DNA from: Alphaproteobacteria bacterium
GTDB lineage: Bacteria > Pseudomonadota > Alphaproteobacteria > SP197
Assembly: GCA_964291265.2 (NCBI GenBank)
Contig: OZ219747.1
Location: 1,920,001-1,984,000, forward strand
Direction: 5' to 3'
DNA length: 64,000 nt
Below are positions 33,101-43,655 of the stretch, one piece after another. Position numbers and translations under genes: made by a program. The notes beneath the pieces were generated by a model. It ran no database searches. It saw only the letters and a list, made by a program, of their open reading frames with translations, and had not been told where the DNA came from. Positions within the stretch are counted from its first letter, which is position 1. Every line of letters starts with the position of its first letter.

Positions 33101-33329
33101 CTGGGGCTGTCAGCCCTGCATTCGAGTTCCCCAGCGATCCACGGAGAGAACATGACACCGCCTCTCGGAACGATGGCAGGAGCCGAGACGCTGAAGCGGC
33201 GCACGGTCCGCGCGGCTCTCCGGAATGCCTGCCGCGACGATCCGGTCGTATTGTTTCAGTCTGTCATTCGTCATGTGATTCAAACCGAATGACGAAAGGG
33301 CGGATTGACAAGATCGCCTTCGTTCTCCC

Positions 33330-33358
33330 TTGACGTATATAGGTCATTGGCCTATGGT
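33330..33358 (+). promoter_or_regulatory. Sigma70-type promoter of the TA operon
   Basis: TTGACG-17 nt-TATGGT, with 6 nt between it and ATG 33365. Confidence 0.6.
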
Positions 33359-33364
33359 TCTGGG

Positions 33365-33640
33365 ATGGAATTCGAATGGGACGAGACCAAGAGCCGTGCT
33401 TGTTTCGAACGTCGCGGCTTCGACTTCGCCCATGCTGTACGCACCTTCCTTGATTCACACCGTCGTGCAGGATCGGCGGAGAGACTATGGCGAGGACTGC
33501 TTTCGCCTGCTCGGCACGGTCGAAGGGCGGGCTGTGTCGTCGTCTGCACGACACGGGGTCCGACCGTTCGCATCATCTCGGCCCGCAAGGCCAACCGCAA
33601 GGAGATCGCGGACTATGAGTACAACGCGCGTAAGGGTTGA
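33365..33640 (+). pseudogene. BrnT-family toxin with two compensating frameshifts
   Basis: MEFEWDETK..C...RGFDF and RIISARKAN in one frame; central QDRRRDYGEDCFRLLG in another. Confidence 0.8.
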
Positions 33641-33950
33641 TCCAGACGACCCGTCCACGTTCCCGGGCGGGCGGATCGACGCCGGGAGGGTGGAGGCAAC
33701 CACGGAAGCGGAGATTGTGGCGCAGGAGCGGGAAGACGAGGCCGAGGCATTGCAGGACATGGCGCGCTATGCGCGCCGGGTCCGGCGGCGTCTGGGTCTC
33801 AGCCAGACGGAACTCGCGCGGCGCATCGATGTGTCGCCCGAGACGGTCCGCACCTCGGAGCAGGGCAAGCGCTTCCCGACCGGCGCGGCGCGGGCACTGT
33901 TGCGAGTGCTTGACAGAGCTCCCGAGATGGCGCTTCGCGTCCTGTCCTGA
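33615..33950 (+). CDS. XRE-family HTH protein, probable antitoxin
   Basis: RRRLGLSQTELARRIDVSPETVRTSEQGKRFPTGAARALL; overlaps the toxin gene. Confidence 0.85.
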   Translation: MSTTRVRVDPDDPSTFPGGRIDAGRVEATTEAEIVAQEREDEAEALQDMARYARRVRRRLGLSQTELARRIDVSPETVRTSEQGKRFPTGAARALLRVLDRAPEMALRVLS

Positions 33951-34960: not shown

Positions 34961-35099
34961 GACCGCGCGGCGCACGCACGAACGCCCTGAGGTCAGGGGG
35001 TGTACGTCGGGATTGTGAGATTTGAACAAAGCGTGCGGTCTGCGGTCGTTTTTGGGTATTGTTCTGACAGTGTATTAGGCTGTCAGTATGGAGGCCCCG

Positions 35100-35519
35100 A
35101 TGACACTGCCCCCCGCATTGTCCGAGCTCAACCTCAGGCGCCGCGACATCCAGAACCAGCTTGCCGACCTTGGCGACCTGCGCCCCGGCTCGCTGACGCC
35201 GCGTTTCCGCAAGTGCGGCAAGCCCACCTGCCACTGTGCCGCCCAGGGAGACCCCGGTCACGGACCGAGCTGGTCGTTGACCTGGTCTGTCGAGGGCAAG
35301 ACCCAAACCCGGATCATCCCCGCCGAGGCGGTCGAGGAAACCCAGGCGCAGATGGCCGAGTATCAGCGCGCCCGTGCTCTTATGCGTGAACTGTTCGAGG
35401 TCAGCACCCGGATGTGCGACGCGCAACTCGACGCCATCAAGGCGATTCCAAAAAAAACTTCGTCGCGGCGCTCGAACCGGAAGTCCGCCACGAGATCGTC
35501 AGCGAAGCGGCGAGCCTGA
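35100..35519 (+). CDS. ISKra4 upstream ORF (DUF6788-like)
   Basis: LRPGSL..RFRKCGKPTCHCA..DPGHGP.W.LT; SD GGAGG; A8 tract at 35450-35457 overlaps the transposase frame. Confidence 0.75.
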   Translation: MTLPPALSELNLRRRDIQNQLADLGDLRPGSLTPRFRKCGKPTCHCAAQGDPGHGPSWSLTWSVEGKTQTRIIPAEAVEETQAQMAEYQRARALMRELFEVSTRMCDAQLDAIKAIPKKTSSRRSNRKSATRSSAKRRA

Positions 35520-36275
35520 TCGGTGTCGGCGTGCTTGACGACTTCCAGGCGATCGAGACTGAGGCCCGGCGGGTGGCATGGCAGATCATGGGGCAGGCGG
35601 TCGCCGCGAAGCTCAACGCCGATCATGCCGACGATCAGGGCCCCTGCCTGTGCGGGTGCGGCGGCAAAGCTCGCTTCGCCGGCCGCCGGCCCAAGACCTT
35701 CATCACCGCCTTGGGCCCGATGACGCTGGAACGGGCCTGGTATCACTGCGACGGCTGTCACTCAGGCTTCAGCCCGCGCGACCGCGCTCTTGGCATGGAG
35801 AACACCTTCCTGTCGCCGGCGTCGCTGCGCATGATCGGCATCGCTGCCGCCAGGATCAGCTTCGAGGGCTCCAGCGCCCTGTTGCGCGAGTTGGCCGGCC
35901 TCGCCGTCGCACCGAAGACGGTGGAACGCCACGCCGAGGCTCTCGGACGTGAGATCGCAGGCGACGAACACCGCGTCATCGAACCCGAGTTCGGCGATGC
36001 CCCCATCCTCTACCTCGGTCTCGATGGCACCGGCGTGCCGGCACGCAAGACCGAAGTCGCGGGGCGTGCGGGCAAGCAGCCCGACGGCGGCGCCAAGACC
36101 CGAGAGGCCAAGCTCGCGGTGGTGTGGTCGGCGGAAACCACCGACCAGGACGGCCGCCCCGTGCGCGATCCCGGTTCCTCCAGCGACAACGCGGCCATCG
36201 AAACCATCGCCTGCCGGGATACCGACGCCGAGCCCGCGCCCTTCGCACGGCGTATCCTGCGCGAGGCCCAGCGCC
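35450..36275 (+). pseudogene. ISKra4 transposase, 5' part
   Basis: CLCGCG..ARF, LERAWYHC..C, LYLGLDGTGVP and TREAKL motifs; cut at the IS21 insertion. Confidence 0.85.
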
Positions 36276-36429
36276 TGTCGGCGGCGATTTAGAACGGCGG
36301 GATATTGGCGGAGAACCGCTCTTTTGGGCGCTGATCGTGTGAGTGGGTGACCACGACAGGAGAACGTGCGGCATTGGACGAAGGTCCGCCCGGTCTTTGT
36401 TTTCTGCCTATTGTTGGATCCCATTGGTC

Positions 36430-37370
36430 TTGCATTGACGTTGACGATGTCGTTCCGGTCGGCGTTTTCTGGCGTTCGGCGTTTGTGGAACGTGATGTGG
36501 GAGGGGAGCTTCAGGCTTTTGCGCGTGGTTTCGTTCTGGCGTTCTCCGGCCTCGTCGTGGTTCGTCGGGCGGGACGATCTCGAGGCTGGAGAGCTGACGG
36601 TTTCTGTTGCGCTGGGCGAAGAGGCTGCGTGCGTTGCGGTTGCGGCGGCGCAGGGTGCGGCAGGCGTCGAGTGTTTTCGGGCGGATGCTGCGACCTGTGA
36701 GCCAGTCCGGCGGCGGATCGGGCGTTGCTGCGGCTCAGCGGCTGCGGCAGTCTCGTGATGTGGTGTCGTTTGGACGGCCCGGGGGTTTCCCGGGGAGGCT
36801 GAGAGGCGCGTCGGGGTGAGACGTTCTCATTCCTGGATGGTAACGCGTGACCGCGTTCAAGGGTCTTGCGAGATTACGTGTCCCTTCCGTAGCCGCGTGG
36901 CGGTTCGATGTCCTCGAGAGCCTCGATGTCGGCATCGGCGACGCTCTGCAGGCGTTCTCCGTAAGGCGTGTCACGGAGGGTTTCGGGGATGCTGTCGAGG
37001 CGGTCACGCCATTCGTCCTGCAGGGTGCGGCAGGCGTCGAGTGTTTTCGGGCGGATGCTGCGACCTGTAAGCCAGTCCGGCCAGCGGCTGCGGCAGTCTC
37101 GTGATGCGGTGTCGTTTGGACGGCCCGGGAGTTTCCCGGGGAGGCTGAGCGGCGCGTCGGGGTGAGACGTTCTCATTCCTGGATGGTAACGCGTGACCGC
37201 GTTCAAGGGTCTTGCGGGATCACGTATCCCTTCCGTAGCCGCGTGGCGGTTCGATGTCCTCGAGGGCCTCGATGTCGGCATCGGCGACGCTCTGCAGGCG
37301 TTCTCCGTAAGGCGTGTCACGGAGGCTTTCGGGGATGCTGTCGAGGTGGTCACGCCATTCGTCCTGCAGG
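36430..37370. repeat. Deleted copy of the toprim gene plus ~346-370-bp tandem mosaic repeats
   Basis: 36441-36560 resembles 37571-37690; 36651-37020 is repeated at 37021-37370. Confidence 0.8.
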
Positions 37371-37510
37371 GCGCGCAGTTCGGCCACGGCGTCGTTCCAG
37401 CGTTGCGGTCGCGAGCGCCGGTCACGGTGCTTTGGGGTGTGGACGGGAGGGATGCCGGCCTTGCGCCGTTCCCGGTATCGCCGCTGCTTTTCGGCGGGCG
37501 TGAGGGGCAT
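37220..37510 (-). CDS. Small hypothetical protein (IS21 cargo)
   Basis: SD AAGGAG; MPLTPAEKQRRYRERRK...RSRPQRWNDAVAEL..LQDEW...IEPPRGYGRD. Confidence 0.7.
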   Translation of the reverse strand: MPLTPAEKQRRYRERRKAGIPPVHTPKHRDRRSRPQRWNDAVAELRALQDEWRDHLDSIPESLRDTPYGERLQSVADADIEALEDIEPPRGYGRDT

Positions 37511-37536
37511 GAGTGGTCTCCTTGTGACGGACGTGG

Positions 37537-38430
37537 TCATGATCTCGCTTGTGGTTCTTTGGTCCTGGCGTTGACGACGTCGTTCCAGTCGGCGTTTTCC
37601 GGCGGTCTGCGTCTGTGGAACGAGACGTGGGAGGGGAGCTTCATCTTTTTGCGCAGGGTTTCGGCCTGTCGCTCTCCGGCCTCGTCGTGGTCCTGGGCGA
37701 GGACGATGGTCCTGACGTTGGGCAGGCTGCTTGCGGCGAGGCTGATCTGTTCGTGCTGTCTTCGCGAGGGTGCCCCGGCGGTGGAGAGGAAGGCGTGGCT
37801 GGGGGGACATTGGTCGATCTGGGCCAGGCTGAGGGCGTCGACGGCGCTTTCGGTGATGACGAGGGCCTCGAGGTCCGCGGCGGTTCCGGCGCGGACGGCG
37901 AACAGGCTTCGGGTTCCACCGGTGGCGAAGCGTTTCGGTCCGTCGGGGGGACCGATCTCGAAGCCGGTGAGCTTTCGCTTCCTGTTGCGATGGGCGAAGA
38001 GGACGCGTCCGTTGTGGTCGCGGCGGACCAGGGGGCGGCAGGTGTCGAGGGTCTCCGGGAGGATGCCGCGCCCGGTGAGCCAGTCCGGGGCCGCATCGGG
38101 CGTTGCCGCGGCCCAGAGGCTGCGGAAGTCGCGTGGCGCGGTGTCGGGTGCTGTGAAGCGGGTGCAGATGTCGGCGAAGGCCAGTCCGCGGTTGAGCATG
38201 AAGTCGATGACGGTTCCGTTGTCTTCATCGTTCTGGGTGTTGAAGTAGACCCAGTGTCCGTTGTTGAGGCACTTCGTGACGAGCTTCGGCAGGCCGGGTG
38301 CGCACAGGACGGGGTTGGCGCGTGTCGAGGCCTGTTCGTCGCGGACGTATCCCCAGTCGGCGGCGATGCGTTCGAACGGCATGCGCTTGACGGCGTCGAA
38401 GTCGACGCGGCGGGGTTTATCGGGTTTCAC
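37537..38430 (-). CDS. DUF3991/Toprim primase-like protein (IS21 cargo)
   Basis: WVYFN...DNGTVIDF, WLTGRGI, LVITESAVDALS, STAG and IVLAQDHDEAG (Toprim E and DxD); overlaps istB. Confidence 0.78.
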   Translation of the reverse strand: MKPDKPRRVDFDAVKRMPFERIAADWGYVRDEQASTRANPVLCAPGLPKLVTKCLNNGHWVYFNTQNDEDNGTVIDFMLNRGLAFADICTRFTAPDTAPRDFRSLWAAATPDAAPDWLTGRGILPETLDTCRPLVRRDHNGRVLFAHRNRKRKLTGFEIGPPDGPKRFATGGTRSLFAVRAGTAADLEALVITESAVDALSLAQIDQCPPSHAFLSTAGAPSRRQHEQISLAASSLPNVRTIVLAQDHDEAGERQAETLRKKMKLPSHVSFHRRRPPENADWNDVVNARTKEPQARS

Positions 38431-39118
38431 GCCTGAGCCGCCAGGAGTCGCTGTCGATGGAGATGAGGGTTGCGTCGTGCATGAGCCGGTCGACGGTGCC
38501 GGCGATGCCGGAGGCGCTGGGGAAGACGCGGTCCCACTGGGCGAAGGCGAGGCTTGTCGTGACCATGGTCGAGCGGCGCTGATAGCGCCGCGAGACGATG
38601 GCGTAGAGGATGTCGGCATGGTGGCTTTCGAGGGTCACGTAGCCGATTTCGTCGAGGATGAGCAGGCGGGGCCTGGCGAGGATCGCGAGGCGGCGGCGCA
38701 GCTCGCTGCGCGAGACGGTCTCGGCGAGTGCCTCGAGCAGTTCCGGCGCCTTCTCGAAGCGGACGGTGTGGCCGTGCAGCAGGGCCTGGTGCGCCACGTT
38801 GGCGGCGATCATGGTCTTTCCGGTGCCCTGCCCGCCGACGAGCACGGCGTTGTCCGCACGGTCGACGAAGCCGAGGCCGAGGAGCGCTTCGACATGAGCC
38901 CGGCTGATGTCGCGCGGCCATGTCCAGTCGAAGTCCGCCAGGGGCTTGAAGGCGGGCAGCCGCGCCGCGGCGCGGCGGCGCTCGTGGCTGCGGGCCCTGC
39001 GGGCCTGTTCCTCGCCGCTGACCACCTCCTCGATCCATGCGGTCCCGGCGACCTCGTCCCAGCGTTCGACGAGCCCGTGGAGGCCGAGCGCCCGGGCACG
39101 CTCCCTGAGCTCGCTCAT
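38417..39118 (-). CDS. istB: IS21 helper AAA+ ATPase
   Basis: FDWTW, Walker A GGQGTGKT, Walker B LLILDEIG, VDRLMH. Confidence 0.92.
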   Translation of the reverse strand: MSELRERARALGLHGLVERWDEVAGTAWIEEVVSGEEQARRARSHERRRAAARLPAFKPLADFDWTWPRDISRAHVEALLGLGFVDRADNAVLVGGQGTGKTMIAANVAHQALLHGHTVRFEKAPELLEALAETVSRSELRRRLAILARPRLLILDEIGYVTLESHHADILYAIVSRRYQRRSTMVTTSLAFAQWDRVFPSASGIAGTVDRLMHDATLISIDSDSWRLRRETR

Positions 39119-40608
39119 GTCTTGTTCCTGGCGCTGGCTTCGGGCCTGTCGTAGGCGTCGAGAGCGGTCCCCCGCGGCGTCGTGCCACGGCCGCCGCGGC
39201 CGTCGTCGGCGATGCTGAGGGGCGGCAGGCCCTGCTCCCGGCGGCGCTCCTCGATGATGACGCGCACGGTTTCGGGGTGGCACGAGCCGCGCTCCAGCGC
39301 CGTGGCGACAGCCCGGTCGAGAGCGTCGGCGCCGTGCGCGTTGAGAAGCGTCTCCAGCATCCGGGCGCAGGAGGCCACGTTGCGCCCGTTGGTCCCGGCG
39401 CGCGCCAGCATCTCCTCGGCCCGCGGCACGGTGCGCAGGACCCGGTCGCGGACGCTCATGGAGCGGGCCCGCCGCTTGCCCGCGGCGATCGCCCTGGCAT
39501 GCTCCGGATCGGTGACGGCCTGCTTCCTGTTGTAGGAGCGTCGGTGGCGCGCGACCTCGTCGGCGCCGTCGAGGATGCGAACCTCGTCGCGGTCGGCGAC
39601 CAGCGTCAGCAGGGCCTTGGAGAAGCTACCCGGAACGCTGTAGTCGTTGGTGTCGAAGCGGGCGTGGCAGGTCTTGTCGATGCGCACCGGGCGGACCTCG
39701 TGATGCGGGAAGGGATCGGCGGGAAGGACGATCAGGTGCTCCCTCTCCCGGGCGAAGGCGTCCCGCACCAGGAGACTGTCGTCGTCCGGCCAGGGCCGCT
39801 CCGCGGCGGCGCCGAAGCACCACTCCCGAACTGCGGCGTTGAGCTCGCCGAGCGGGACCGTGATGTCGCGCCCGGCGAAGAACCCGGTGCGCGCGAAGCG
39901 CACACGGCGTTCCACGCGGCCCTTCTCCTGCGGGCTCCTGGGCCAGGCGGCGCTCGGTTCGAAGGCATAGTGGGCCGCGAGGCCGAGCAGCATCGGATGA
40001 TAGGTGACCGCCTTGCCGCGGCGCGTCACCACGGCACTCTTCAGGTTGTCGTACAGAAGCCTCCGCGGCACACCCCCGAATGCCGCGAAAGCCTCGACAT
40101 GGCCTTGCAGGAAGCTGGCCATCCGCGCGTCGTGGAACAGGCTCAGGACAGTCTGGCGCGAGTAGCTGAGGGTGACGAGAAGCCCCATGAGCCTGCGCTC
40201 CGCCCGGCCGATGCGGACCTTCCCGAACTCGGCCCAGTCAACCTGCGCCTGCTCGCCCGGAAGGAAGCTCAGCCGCAGCGACGGCTCGGGCCTCTTCACC
40301 GGCCTCAGCCCAAGGCGGCGCAGGTCGTGACGGAAGTGATCCTCGCCGCCGCGGTAGCCCAGAGCCACGACCTGTCGCCAGAGCGTGCTGGCCGGAAGGT
40401 CCGGCGACGCCTCAAGACGCTCCCCGAGGAAGGCAACGAAGGGGTCGATGAGCTTGGCCCGCGGCCGCCGCTCCTGCCCCGACGCCTTGAGCGCCCGCGT
40501 CACCGTGCCGTGGTGCACGCCGAGATGCCGGGCAATCGTCCCCACAGCCCAGCCCTCGGCCCGCGACAGCCGCACGATCGTCGCCCGCGTGTCCTCGTCG
40601 ATCGCCAT
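39115..40608 (-). CDS. istA: IS21-family DDE transposase
   Basis: N-terminal HTH, PGEQAQVDW, LSYSR, LYDNLK, QEKGRVER and NDYSVP motifs. Confidence 0.93.
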   Translation of the reverse strand: MAIDEDTRATIVRLSRAEGWAVGTIARHLGVHHGTVTRALKASGQERRPRAKLIDPFVAFLGERLEASPDLPASTLWRQVVALGYRGGEDHFRHDLRRLGLRPVKRPEPSLRLSFLPGEQAQVDWAEFGKVRIGRAERRLMGLLVTLSYSRQTVLSLFHDARMASFLQGHVEAFAAFGGVPRRLLYDNLKSAVVTRRGKAVTYHPMLLGLAAHYAFEPSAAWPRSPQEKGRVERRVRFARTGFFAGRDITVPLGELNAAVREWCFGAAAERPWPDDDSLLVRDAFAREREHLIVLPADPFPHHEVRPVRIDKTCHARFDTNDYSVPGSFSKALLTLVADRDEVRILDGADEVARHRRSYNRKQAVTDPEHARAIAAGKRRARSMSVRDRVLRTVPRAEEMLARAGTNGRNVASCARMLETLLNAHGADALDRAVATALERGSCHPETVRVIIEERRREQGLPPLSIADDGRGGRGTTPRGTALDAYDRPEASARNKT

Positions 40609-40640
40609 GAACTCCCTCCCTTTGGTTCCTCAACGCCGCA

Positions 40641-41117
40641 TCACGGGTCCCTCAGCACCACATGCGTCACGACCCGTCCGCATCTGGCGCACCGAAGCGG
40701 CGATTCGCGCCGCTCTTGCGCCTTCACAACCGCAGGTAGGGAGGTCGGCAGCAGTCGGGAAGGGTGGTCCGTAACGATTTCTTCAGAACCGGCGTCTCCA
40801 GACACCGCCGGAACGTCGCCAAGCAGCACCACAGCAGACGTCTGCGTGCCCATGATCTCGGCAACCATCGCCGCCCTGGCCTTCAACGCACGCGCCTCCT
40901 CCGCCTTGCGGAGCCGGTAACGCCGCTGGCGGTGACGGCCCGTCTCACGGCCCTTCAGCGTGCTCTGGTAGCGACGACGCGACGCGCGGCGCCGCTCGAT
41001 CCGGGACCGCTCCCTGCACTCCTTGGAGCAATACACATGTCCCCGGTCACACGACCGGCAGAGAACAACCTGCCGCTGACACCGCCTGCAGTTGAACAGT
41101 CGTCCTGTCGTGCACAC
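40641..41117 (-). CDS. Cys-rich zinc-finger hypothetical protein upstream of istA; start uncertain
   Basis: RLFNCRRCQRQVVLCRSCDRGHVYCSKEC, Arg-rich helix, C-terminal CARCG. Confidence 0.7.
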   Translation of the reverse strand: MCTTGRLFNCRRCQRQVVLCRSCDRGHVYCSKECRERSRIERRRASRRRYQSTLKGRETGRHRQRRYRLRKAEEARALKARAAMVAEIMGTQTSAVVLLGDVPAVSGDAGSEEIVTDHPSRLLPTSLPAVVKAQERRESPLRCARCGRVVTHVVLRDP

Positions 41118-41435
41118 CGTCCGTCTCGAGAGCGGGGGTGGACCCGGACGCAAAATGGCTCGACAATACACGGGAGTTCGGTCCCCCGTGACCGGCTCGT
41201 CCGGGTGCTGCGCCGGGGGGCGTCACAACTCCGCCCGGCATCGCATCGCTCTTTCTCTTGATGCCGATCTAGCATCCACCCGGGGCGGCGGCAAAGACGC
41301 CGCCCCGGGACCGGACAACGCGACCCGCCCACAGGGAAGACAAACAATCCCGCGAGTGCCTCGGAACCGGAACCCTCCCGGCAACCGTCACCAAGACCGA
41401 AGCAGAGGTCGACGGAACCCGAACCGGACCAAAAC

Positions 41436-41528
41436 GACAATAGGAAAAGACGGCGGCGCTCGGGGAGACAACCAGCCGAACACTCAAACCACGACAACAG
41501 GACGTGACAATAGGACCTGACAACAGGG
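41436..41528. repeat. Four GACAAYAGG direct repeats near the IS21 end
   Basis: Copies at 41436, 41493, 41506 and 41519 (13-bp period for the last three). Confidence 0.75.
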
Positions 41529-41600
41529 AAGAAACACGACCCTGACAAAGCGCGGCAAATCGCCGAAATCCCGCCGTTCTATGCAGCCATCAACAGCGCC

Positions 41601-42122
41601 GCGGCTTCGACAGCGCAGCGCGCCAGGTCCTGCTCGGCGACGGTGCGCCATGGATAGGGAACTTCGCCAACGAGCACTTCCCCGACGCTGTCCAGATCGT
41701 CGACATCTTCCACGCCAAGGGCCATCTGTTCGATGTCGCCAAGGCGATCTACAACACACAGCAGCGAGATCGGCGAACGATGGGCCAGAAAGCGGCGCGA
41801 GGAGCTTGATGAGGGCCGCGTCGACGACGTGATCGCCGCCCTGCTGAGCCATGCCGCAAGCTGCGAGGAAGCCCGCAAGAACGCCGAGTACTTCGCCACC
41901 AACCGGGAGCGAATGAACTATCCGAGGTTCAGGGCGATGGGCCTGTGCGCTGCCTCCGGCGTGGTCGAGGGAGGCTGCAAGAACATCGTCGGCACCCGCC
42001 TCAAGCAAGGCGGCATGCACTGGACCGTCGACGGCGCCAACGCCATCATCGCCCTGCGCTGCGCCGTCGAAAGCAACCGCTTCGACGACTTCTGGGAACG
42101 GCGCGCCAGCGCAAGAGCATGA
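41601..42122 (+). pseudogene. ISKra4 transposase, 3' part (extra frameshift near 41755)
   Basis: LGDGAPWI, VDIFHA, RMNYPRFR, SGVVEGGCK and RLKQGGMHW motifs. Confidence 0.85.
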
Positions 42123-42286: not shown

Positions 42287-43372
42287 TCACTCGCGCTCGG
42301 CCAGCAACGCCAAGAGCGGCGGGTTGATGTAGAGGTTCTCGCGCCCTGCCTTGATCTCCTCAAGGAGGCCTTCGGCCGCAAGGGCTTTCAGGTAGACGGC
42401 GGCCGTCTGGCGCTTGGCGATATCCGCTTTGACCATGTCGCTGATCCGGCAGCAGGGATGCACGAAGATGAGCTCCGCCAACTCCCGGGAGTAGATTTTC
42501 GGCATCCTCTGCCGAATGGCAGCGCCCGTCTCGTCGAGAAGCTCCCGGATCGCACTGATCTTCGCCGTCGTCCATTCCGCCGTCGTTCTGACGGTCTCAA
42601 GAATGAAGAGTATCCAAGCTTCCCAGTCCTGTCGGGTCGTCACCTCCAGAAGATGCCGGTAGTACAGCGCCTTGTTTCGGATGATGTGCCGGCTGAGATA
42701 AAGGACGGGAACGTCGAGCAGGCCCTTGTCGACGAGATAGAGCAGGTTCAGCACTCGTCCGGTCCGGCCGTTTCCGTCAACGAATGGATGGATCGCCTCG
42801 AACTGATAATGCATGACCGCAAGCCGGATCAGCGGGTCGATCTCCTCGGCCTCGTGAATGTAGCGCTCCCAATTGGCGAGCTTGCTCCGGAGAACGTTCT
42901 CTCCCTCCGGCGGAGTGTAGATGACTTTCCGGGTTGCATCGTTCATCAGCGCCGTTCCCGGCGTGTTGCGAATGTCCAGCTCCACTCCCTTGATCGTTCG
43001 ACAGACTTCGACCGCGATGGCGGTCGAAACCGGCCGTTGGTTCAGCATCTCGAATCCGCGGTGCAAGGCGGTGCGGTAGCGCAGTGCCTCTTTGGTGGCT
43101 GGGTCGGCCCGACCCGTAGCGTCGTTGGCATAGCGGAACAGCCGGTCGGCCGTCGTGATGATGTTCTCGATCTCGGAACTCGCCTGCGCTTCGAGCAGGG
43201 GGATCGAGTTAATCAGCATCGCCTGGTTCGGGATGAGCCGCTCGGAAACCCGGAGCTCCGCTAGTGCCGCGCGCGCGGCGATGCAGCTCCGAAGAATGGC
43301 CTTGGTCTCGGTTTCCGAAGCCGGCGGCAGGTTCGGAAGGTCATTGAAAGGACGCTTGGGATCGAACGTCAT
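42287..43372 (-). CDS. fic: Fic-family protein adenylyltransferase (SoFic-like, class II, C-terminal HTH)
   Basis: HPFVDGNGRTGR active-site motif; SSEIEN inhibitory motif. Confidence 0.92.
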   Translation of the reverse strand: MTFDPKRPFNDLPNLPPASETETKAILRSCIAARAALAELRVSERLIPNQAMLINSIPLLEAQASSEIENIITTADRLFRYANDATGRADPATKEALRYRTALHRGFEMLNQRPVSTAIAVEVCRTIKGVELDIRNTPGTALMNDATRKVIYTPPEGENVLRSKLANWERYIHEAEEIDPLIRLAVMHYQFEAIHPFVDGNGRTGRVLNLLYLVDKGLLDVPVLYLSRHIIRNKALYYRHLLEVTTRQDWEAWILFILETVRTTAEWTTAKISAIRELLDETGAAIRQRMPKIYSRELAELIFVHPCCRISDMVKADIAKRQTAAVYLKALAAEGLLEEIKAGRENLYINPPLLALLAERE

Positions 43373-43655
43373 GTCGATGTATCCTGCTCCCGTCGACACG
43401 TGTTCCGGACATGTCGATCTCATCGACACCTCACTCAAACATGTCGATGAAGAGAGTGTATATCGACATGTTGCGCTGCAGCAAGCACAAGGGCCGACAA
43501 TGTCGCCCACTGTCCATCGGGCGCTCCAAGCTCTCTACTGCGGGCGGAAGATGCCGCCGAGACCTTGGCGCTGACGCGGCCGATCGATGAGCGGTTCCTG
43601 AAATCCTTGCTGCATCGCGCCCACCCGATGGCGCTTCGCCTGCGCCGGCGGGTGT

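Follow-up and report, generated by a model that had tools for sequence, protein, structure and literature searches.

An active IS21-family element in an alphaproteobacterial genome keeps a plasmid-type, primase-like gene behind istB

An insertion sequence (IS) of the IS21 family in the genome of an alphaproteobacterium (assembly GCA_964291265.2) carries, directly behind the transposition genes istA and istB, a gene of the DUF3991/Toprim type that likely encodes a DNA primase. The element occupies positions 36276-41595 (5,320 bp, with all genes on the minus strand) of the window, by which we mean the whole 64,000-nucleotide stretch of contig OZ219747.1 (positions 1,920,001 to 1,984,000) that was analysed. 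Its conserved core consists of four genes, namely a Cys-rich, Zn-finger-like open reading frame (ORF), istA, istB and the DUF3991/Toprim gene, and these are followed by a piece of variable cargo, orf5. We propose that this active element keeps a plasmid-type primase that primes DNA synthesis on a nicked and bridged intermediate of transposition, which would allow the element to be copied from its donor site, and we put the probability of this reading at about one half.

The fold predicted for the 297-residue DUF3991/Toprim protein is that of a primase. In a comparison of the AlphaFold2 model (mean predicted local distance difference test score, pLDDT, of 91) with solved structures, the best match was the T7 gp4 primase (1nui_B; Z 15.4, root-mean-square deviation 3.5 Å, 178 residues aligned), followed by DnaG of Aquifex (Z 13.2) and Twinkle (Z 13.0), with topoisomerases and RNase M5 ranking lower. 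Foldseek searches against solved and viral structures concurred, and a profile search matched T7 gp4 at E 9e-10. The catalytic glutamate of the Toprim domain, its DxD motif and the downstream acidic motif correspond to E194, D198, D247, D249, D281 and D284; these six residues as well as R121 and H147 are identical in all 32 full copies of the element in the host genome. Beyond this genome, E194 was present in 38 of 38 proteins of the clade formed by the IS-borne homologues, throughout which D247, D249 and D281 are also kept, and R121, the equivalent of R84 in T7 gp4, is retained.

The wider family of this protein is of the plasmid type. Members of the wider DUF3991/Toprim family were found on 306 plasmid records, genes for a relaxase or for type IV secretion adjoin the homologues in two of three plasmid regions examined, and a relaxase domain was identified in 15 of 26 long homologues scanned. 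The IS-borne proteins form a single long-branch clade (38/38). They share with the plasmid DUF3991-and-TOPRIM proteins and the relaxase-primase fusions (MobP, MobQ, Mob_Pre) a three-part layout, the acidic motifs and 26-38% identity, but lack the basic C-terminal tail of several standalone homologues and have an altered basic cleft. With the DnaG-type primases (T7 gp4, DnaG, Twinkle) they have in common the RNA-polymerase domain and Toprim fold (Z 11-15) with the aligned Glu and DxD residues, whereas conserved zinc ligands and a helicase or helicase-binding domain are missing from the predicted primase of the element. An earlier description of the window, based on the DNA letters and here called the sequence-only reading, had described this gene as Toprim/primase-like and as a possible captured plasmid-type module; hidden Markov models and the structural comparison agree with the former, and the plasmid records fit a plasmid-type primase.

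Within the close relatives of the element, the primase gene is a fixed component. A scan seeded with the primase yielded 52 loci in 15 genomes titled Paracoccaceae or other alphaproteobacterial metagenome-assembled genomes; istB was located directly upstream in 42 of these, and the remaining 10 are fragmentary, with 155 residues at most. An IstA-seeded search of the genomes chosen in this way gave 47 rows, from which we set aside one hit of 41% identity and two rows that each represent the second piece of a broken gene. The resulting 44 distinct IstA loci (62-84% identical, from 8 genomes) were in every case followed by the primase gene, which was of full length in 40, a result that speaks of fixation within the clade and not of frequency, the genomes having been picked via the primase. 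Four related elements delimited by comparison of copies measure 4.1-4.7 kb and have TG...CA ends and duplications of 5-7 bp. Median ratios of nonsynonymous to synonymous substitution rates (dN/dS, Nei-Gojobori method, 21 pairs from 7 lineages) were 0.35 for istA, 0.31 for istB, 0.37 for the primase gene and 0.55 for the Cys-rich ORF, and these values indicate that the primase is under purifying selection comparable to that on the transposase. The subgroup is sparse in the genomes searched: relatives of IstA (E <= 1e-60) were found in two of 300 other genomes of the class and in one of 400 genomes around genome G301. In G301 itself (G301:C6, L209:3420-9782), the istB gene of a related element contains a 6.4-kb insert made up of two IS21 gene pairs of the canonical type; a primase gene that looks intact lies between the pairs and runs on the opposite strand.

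The element itself is recently active in this genome. A total of 32 full copies, mostly 98-100% identical, were identified in the 4.83-Mb genome (2 contigs), along with unpaired ends (14 left, 8 right), and the element accounts for 4.3% of the main contig. The full copies are flanked by duplications of 5 bp (22 copies), 6 bp (4 copies), 7 bp (one copy) or none (5 copies), and they start with TG except for one, which starts with CG. All 32 copies have an undamaged istA, istB and Cys-rich ORF; the primase gene is intact in 31 and orf5 in 29. Two copies measure about 4,970 bp, a shortfall of roughly one unit of the tandem duplication described below. In the contigs of three public runs from one study, the left end joins other flanks, and six flank motifs checked corresponded to insertion sites of this assembly (2), to sites that are empty here (3) or to nothing in the assembly (1), which points to insertion sites that are polymorphic between samples. 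The contigs of the same runs, which drop rare forms, contained no end-to-end joint of the kind expected from a circle. We observed no bias toward leading-strand orientation (15/31 copies). As a separate observation, 16 of 31 full copies on G000:C2, a contig of the host genome, are flanked on both sides by multi-copy DNA (four of them lie within the element itself), compared to 84 of 400 random control stretches, an excess that reflects either a target preference or a survival bias.

The ends and the enzymes identify the element as a member of the IS21 family. Its termini read TG (36276) and CA (41595), and 26 of the 35 terminal bases pair between the ends, including an identical core of 14 bp. 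The GCGCC direct repeat on both flanks (36271-36275 and 41596-41600) is a proven 5-bp target-site duplication, because GCGCC occurs only once at the empty sites, which are three uninterrupted copies elsewhere in the genome of the ISKra4-family IS that served as target; the insertion disrupts the transposase gene of this IS (NF033572 matches on either side). The DDE triad of IstA (D124, D187, E233) is invariant across 44 sequences, and IstB has both a Walker A and a Walker B motif, with NF038214 as its best NCBIfam model at a score slightly below the cut-off. Excerpts of the literature on IS21/IS5376 (PMC10122671, PMC11208146) describe an IstA triad at the same residue numbers, an IstB that is an AAA+ ATPase, TG...CA ends and mostly 5-bp duplications, as here. 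They also describe the members of the family as two-gene elements (PMC10122671), whereas the present element has two extra conserved genes, the Zn-finger ORF before istA and the primase gene after istB, as well as a greater size (4.1-5.3 kb when its relatives are included, versus about 2.5 kb). Its IstA is also longer (497 versus about 400 residues). With the IstA, IstB, ends and duplication of IS21 but not the two-gene organisation of the family, the element is thus a variant of IS21.

The genes are tightly packed: istA and istB overlap by 4 bp, istB and the primase gene by 14 bp and the primase gene and orf5 by 4 bp, while the Zn-finger ORF is separated from istA by a 32-bp gap with a purine-rich stretch resembling a ribosome-binding site. 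This ORF gave only a weak match to zf-MYND in Pfam (E 0.07) and is kept in relatives. A motif scan for transposase-binding repeats of the R1/R2 type inside the ends recovered short partial repeats only, and neither a sigma-70 promoter match nor an Rfam match was obtained for the element. The 0.9 kb beyond orf5, on the side of the right inverted repeat, contains a tandem duplication of about 350 bp and a degenerate, partial second primase gene. The inverted repeats with their 5-bp duplication, the order of the five genes and the overlaps from istA to the Toprim gene had all been proposed in the sequence-only reading and are borne out; the interrupted ISKra4-family transposase, the repeats beyond orf5 and the multiple copies come in addition to it. 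A unit of five genes had been proposed as well, and this did not hold: orf5 is best described as cargo, since among the 8 related genomes in which istA loci occur it was found in one only (G302, 43-44% identity), besides an IS110 element of the host genome. Searches with orf5 revealed no plasmid homologue and no family over the cut-off. Its homologue in the host genome (78% identity, several copies; G000:C2:3032600-3034900) lies directly behind an IS110-like transposase gene, as judged by eye, and short repeated motifs, perhaps binding sites, come after it.

In more distant relatives, the gene in the slot behind istB is exchanged across the subgroup. We compiled 83 loci with an IstA of 40-50% identity, of which 80 are metagenomic (the best 80 of 583) and three are from genomes; the Cys-rich ORF was present in 73 and istB in 77. 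At 47 of the 67 loci that could be scored, the gene after istB, which in most cases overlaps the istB stop codon, encodes a member of one family, about 50-95 residues in length. These small proteins (typically around 70 residues) have a helical core and an acidic tail, and their C-termini end in F/W in 43, in PF in 33 and in an acidic residue plus [PSD][FW] in 41 of the 47, a motif that was seen in 51 of 4,858 control frames (~1%). The tail resembles, in its sequence, that of the single-stranded DNA-binding protein (SSB), which in the host genome ends in DFDDGIPF. DnaG, PriA and other repair proteins dock on the acidic tail of SSB. The 53 primase-bearing sequences and the host genome yielded no member of the small-protein family, and the small slot proteins matched no Pfam family (11 scanned) and no NCBIfam family (6 of these scanned). 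Sister elements with the SSB-tail-type gene reside on plasmids of the cultured Aromatoleum aromaticum EbN1 and Alicycliphilus denitrificans BC. Elsewhere, the slot contains a helical protein of 120-130 residues or other small ORFs, or seems to be empty. For the helical protein (L112, L119, L120), a likeness to DnaD suggested by eye was considered and rejected: the DnaD domains (Z 4.8 and 4.6) scored level with many AAA lid bundles, and no match was returned by Foldseek. At yet another locus (L081), the slot holds a different protein, winged-helix-like by eye.

Primase-like genes recur behind the ATPase gene of other transposons, both in another IS21 lineage and in transposons of the IS481/ExeA type. 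The IS21 lineage (L187/L207; IstA 46% identical) repeats the four-gene layout with a distinct primase-like gene, the product of which shares 36% identity across 270 residues with the primase of a second transposon in the host genome and only 27% across 111 residues with that of the present element; going by these similarities, the primases of the two IS21 lineages belong to different subfamilies. We also considered that the layout was gained twice independently within IS21, but rejected this as a claim: the IstA trees need two changes, and a single primase-bearing clade is not rejected by the approximately unbiased (AU) test (p 0.35; 19/90 rows). The second transposon of the host genome is present in four full copies and several split or partial ones. 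Besides a Cys-rich ORF, it has genes for a DDE protein resembling that of IS481, an ExeA-like ATPase, a helicase-like protein of the AAA_25 type and a DUF3991/Toprim primase whose acidic motifs are intact. A further element with DDE and ExeA-like ATPase genes and a primase (46% identical to that of the second transposon) was seen in G308:C18 (L208:7311-16173), where it occurs twice in the stretch, once partly. A survey of 400 genomes of the phylum gave six loci with DUF3991/Toprim homologues; none of these and none of 20 viral loci lay beside an istB detectable with the IstB of this element.

How might a primase serve an IS? Members of the IS21 family have been proposed to move by copy-out/paste-in transposition and often produce 5-bp repeats (excerpt of PMC11208146). 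In copy-out transposition, a single-strand bridge is formed and a 3'-OH primes the synthesis of a circular copy (excerpt of 10.1101/2023.06.07.543989). In the scheme that we favor, IstA would nick one end and then bridge both ends, as proposed for IS21, and the strand without a free 3'-OH would need priming while the element is copied. The primase would lay RNA primers on this intermediate, with helicase and polymerase supplied by the host, and IstA and IstB would finally insert the copy, making the 5-bp duplication. IS911 circles reportedly require DnaG. Whereas the clade studied here would bring its own primase, the sister elements would recruit SSB partners such as DnaG and PriA through the acidic-Pro-Phe tail. 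In broader terms, we consider it an even bet that the slot behind istB serves to get the intermediate replicated, via host SSB partners in most lineages and via the element's own primase here.

Several observations weigh against this scheme. Canonical IS21 transposes with two genes (excerpt of PMC10122671), and several of the distant relatives appear to end directly after istB; within our scheme the primase counts as an accessory, because the slot of some relatives is empty. No primase gene was found at any of the 83 distant loci, of which 16 extend at least 900 bp past istB and 67 have a readable next gene. The link between the small slot proteins and SSB partners is drawn from the likeness of their tails. 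In the L187/L207 lineage, the primase-like gene has lost the catalytic Glu and the DxD motif, yet its frame is still open. The protein of the present element has no conserved Cys/His zinc ligands in the alignment of the N-terminal domain, and none of 34 members scanned matched a zinc-ribbon model in Pfam; the N-terminus of one homologue falls near clusters with 29% PF01807, which is a lead only. The basic residue at position 160, equivalent to R124 in T7 gp4, is Gly, Ala or Ser in 38 of 38 clade members, whereas 139 of 143 standalone homologues and 43 of 44 fused ones have Lys or Arg there, and a basic pair, K166/R167 (K/R166-R167), arises nearby in the clade. Basic residues in the cleft for nucleoside triphosphates and template are important in the T7 gp4 and DnaG primases. 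Finally, D198 is replaced by Asn in 17 of the 38 clade members.

These features could also be explained if the protein were a non-priming accessory of transposition that binds single-stranded or forked DNA at the intermediate, docks host replication and repair proteins or regulates the transpososome. The D198N replacements, the loss of the basic residue, the absence of zinc ligands and the dead primase in the same slot of L187/L207 all speak in its favor, as does the small non-enzyme that usually fills the slot. We nevertheless consider it rather unlikely, in that the conservation of E194, D247, D249 and D281 across the clade and in 32 of 32 copies is simplest to understand if metal-dependent catalysis is selected. 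Somewhat less probable still is that the primase arrived as a passenger, captured from the transfer region of a plasmid, that aids the host or horizontal spread, for example by second-strand priming on incoming single-stranded plasmid DNA, and has no part in transposition. The plasmid homologues with their relaxase domains and transfer-gene neighbors, and the readiness of the element to acquire cargo (orf5, a primase remnant), would fit such an origin. A passenger is not expected to overlap istB at a fixed position in 44 of 44 loci, to experience the same selection as istA, to replace the usual slot gene instead of being added to it and to recur in unrelated transposons, and the true cargo, orf5, behaves otherwise, being found in one of the 8 related genomes.

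Two further roles for the primase appear to fit less well. The excised circle could be a mini-replicon maintained by the primase, perhaps with IstB loading the host helicase, given that IstB is described as a close paralog of DnaC/DnaI (excerpt of PMC11208146) and scores against the DnaC and DnaI models, and that the second transposon in the genome carries both helicase and primase. This is improbable: no initiator, relaxase, origin, helicase or polymerase was identified among the ORFs of the element, the listed repeats include no origin-like array, and the DnaC/DnaI scores are far under the cut-offs and general to IstB. Even more remote is a function in the repair of target gaps after strand transfer. 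Such gaps do need filling to yield the 5-bp duplication, but a gap of 5 nucleotides already provides a 3'-OH, which makes a primer superfluous, and two-gene IS21 elements produce the same duplication (excerpt of PMC11208146). Of the roles put forward in the sequence-only reading, assistance in replication thus remains the best, while gap filling and the maintenance of a circle have lost ground. It had also singled out an unusual IS21 subgroup with a primase, to be judged by whether close relatives of IstA keep the gene: close ones do (44/44), those at 40-50% identity lack it (0/83) and have other small genes in its place, and the Zn-finger ORF proved to characterize the wider subgroup (73/83) and not the primase module.

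Priming enzymes have been associated with circle-forming ISs before, in that the insertion sequence excision enhancer (IEE) is proposed to act at their copy-out step (excerpt of 10.1101/2023.06.07.543989). IEE is an unrelated enzyme, a PrimPol-helicase of the archaeo-eukaryotic primase (AEP) type that is encoded outside the IS and promotes its loss, whereas the Toprim protein is encoded within the element. By inference from this analogy, the element may work as an IS that has its own, internal means of carrying out the priming step in which IEE has been proposed to take part. Casposons, Polintons and pipolins carry a DNA-synthesis gene of their own, which is a family B DNA polymerase. The present element, in contrast, combines a primase-like gene with an IS21 transposase only, and no family B polymerase was detected among its genes, either as an ORF or as a Pfam match. 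The suggestion that the subgroup is possibly undescribed agrees with our search of the open literature, in which we found no IS21 element with a primase or SSB-tail gene, ISfinder, most subscription papers and supplements being outside the scope of this search; excerpts of the literature on Tn6048 and Tn6049 do not describe the layout either.

The features of the element and of the transposons compared with it are listed in Table 1. The ISKra4-family target (window 35088-42122) has a DUF6788 gene upstream, and its transposase frame is also broken past the insertion point. Near the site (33305-33950; 42287-43510), inspection by eye suggests a gene pair of the BrnT/BrnA-like or HTH antitoxin type as well as a Fic-domain-like gene.

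Table 1. Coordinates of the IS21-family element, its target and related loci. Positions without a locus name refer to the window; L, G and C numbers are our names for loci, genomes and contigs (G000 is the host genome).
Feature	Position	Strand	Remarks
Disrupted ISKra4-family transposase, 5' part (target, outside element)	35414..36275	+	NF033572 positions 7-252
Target-site duplication, left copy GCGCC	36271..36275	.	Single at three empty sites
Right terminal inverted repeat, TG end, downstream of genes	36276..36310	-	26/35 match; same end in 32 full copies
Degenerate, internally deleted second primase copy	36436..36768	-	81-84% DNA identity to 37566-37707 + 37937-38146; reading-frame remnant
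Tandem duplication, ~350-380 bp, holds 3' half of orf5	36650..37375 (36650-37029 + 37020-37375)	-	
orf5, 106 aa, variable cargo, no family over cut-off	37220..37540	-	Intact in 29/32 copies
DUF3991/Toprim_2 primase-like gene, 297 aa	37537..38430	-	Pfam, fold, residues; GTG start inferred from homologues
istB, AAA+ helper ATPase, 233 aa	38417..39118	-	PF01695 172 bits (cut-off 24); NF038214 192.2 bits (cut-off 200)
istA, DDE transposase, 497 aa, D124/D187/E233	39115..40608	-	NF033546 223 bits (cut-off 160)
Cys-rich Zn-finger-like ORF	40641..41171	-	176 aa from 41171; start 41117 likelier by alignment
Left terminal inverted repeat, upstream of genes, CA on + strand	41561..41595	-	Terminal match
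Target-site duplication, right copy GCGCC	41596..41600	.	
Disrupted ISKra4-family transposase, 3' part (target)	41601..42122	+	NF033572 positions 312-421 for 41733-42122
L187/L207-type IS21: Zn-finger ORF, istA (46%), istB (52%), primase-like gene	L207:1959-5544 (G1098:C38)		
Second transposon in host genome, 5,161 bp	L053:7063-12223 (G000:C2:47062-52222)	-	4-5-bp duplications
SSB-tail-like family members	ORF after istB in L065-L144, L058, L061, L164-L166		
Helical slot protein, 120-130 aa, 23 homologues	L120:3082-3474, L112:3376-3735, L119:2753-3139		

Our findings suggest that the slot behind istB in a single IS21 backbone has been filled by a primase, by a dead version of one or by an SSB-tail-like peptide, or has been left empty, and this offers a natural series for gene swaps. 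Sister elements of the SSB-tail type are available in cultured bacteria, and the element itself makes up 4.3% of the main contig, with sites that differ between samples. More tentatively, and with somewhat less confidence than we place in the priming role, we hypothesize that ATPase-assisted DDE transposons, such as this IS21 subgroup and the IS481/ExeA-type elements, carry a dedicated and exchangeable gene for the recruitment of replication behind the ATPase gene, in the form of an SSB-tail mimic, a captured primase (from at least two subfamilies) or a helicase with a primase. If this were true, the element would be a self-priming IS, representing an intermediate between simple ISs and self-replicating elements.

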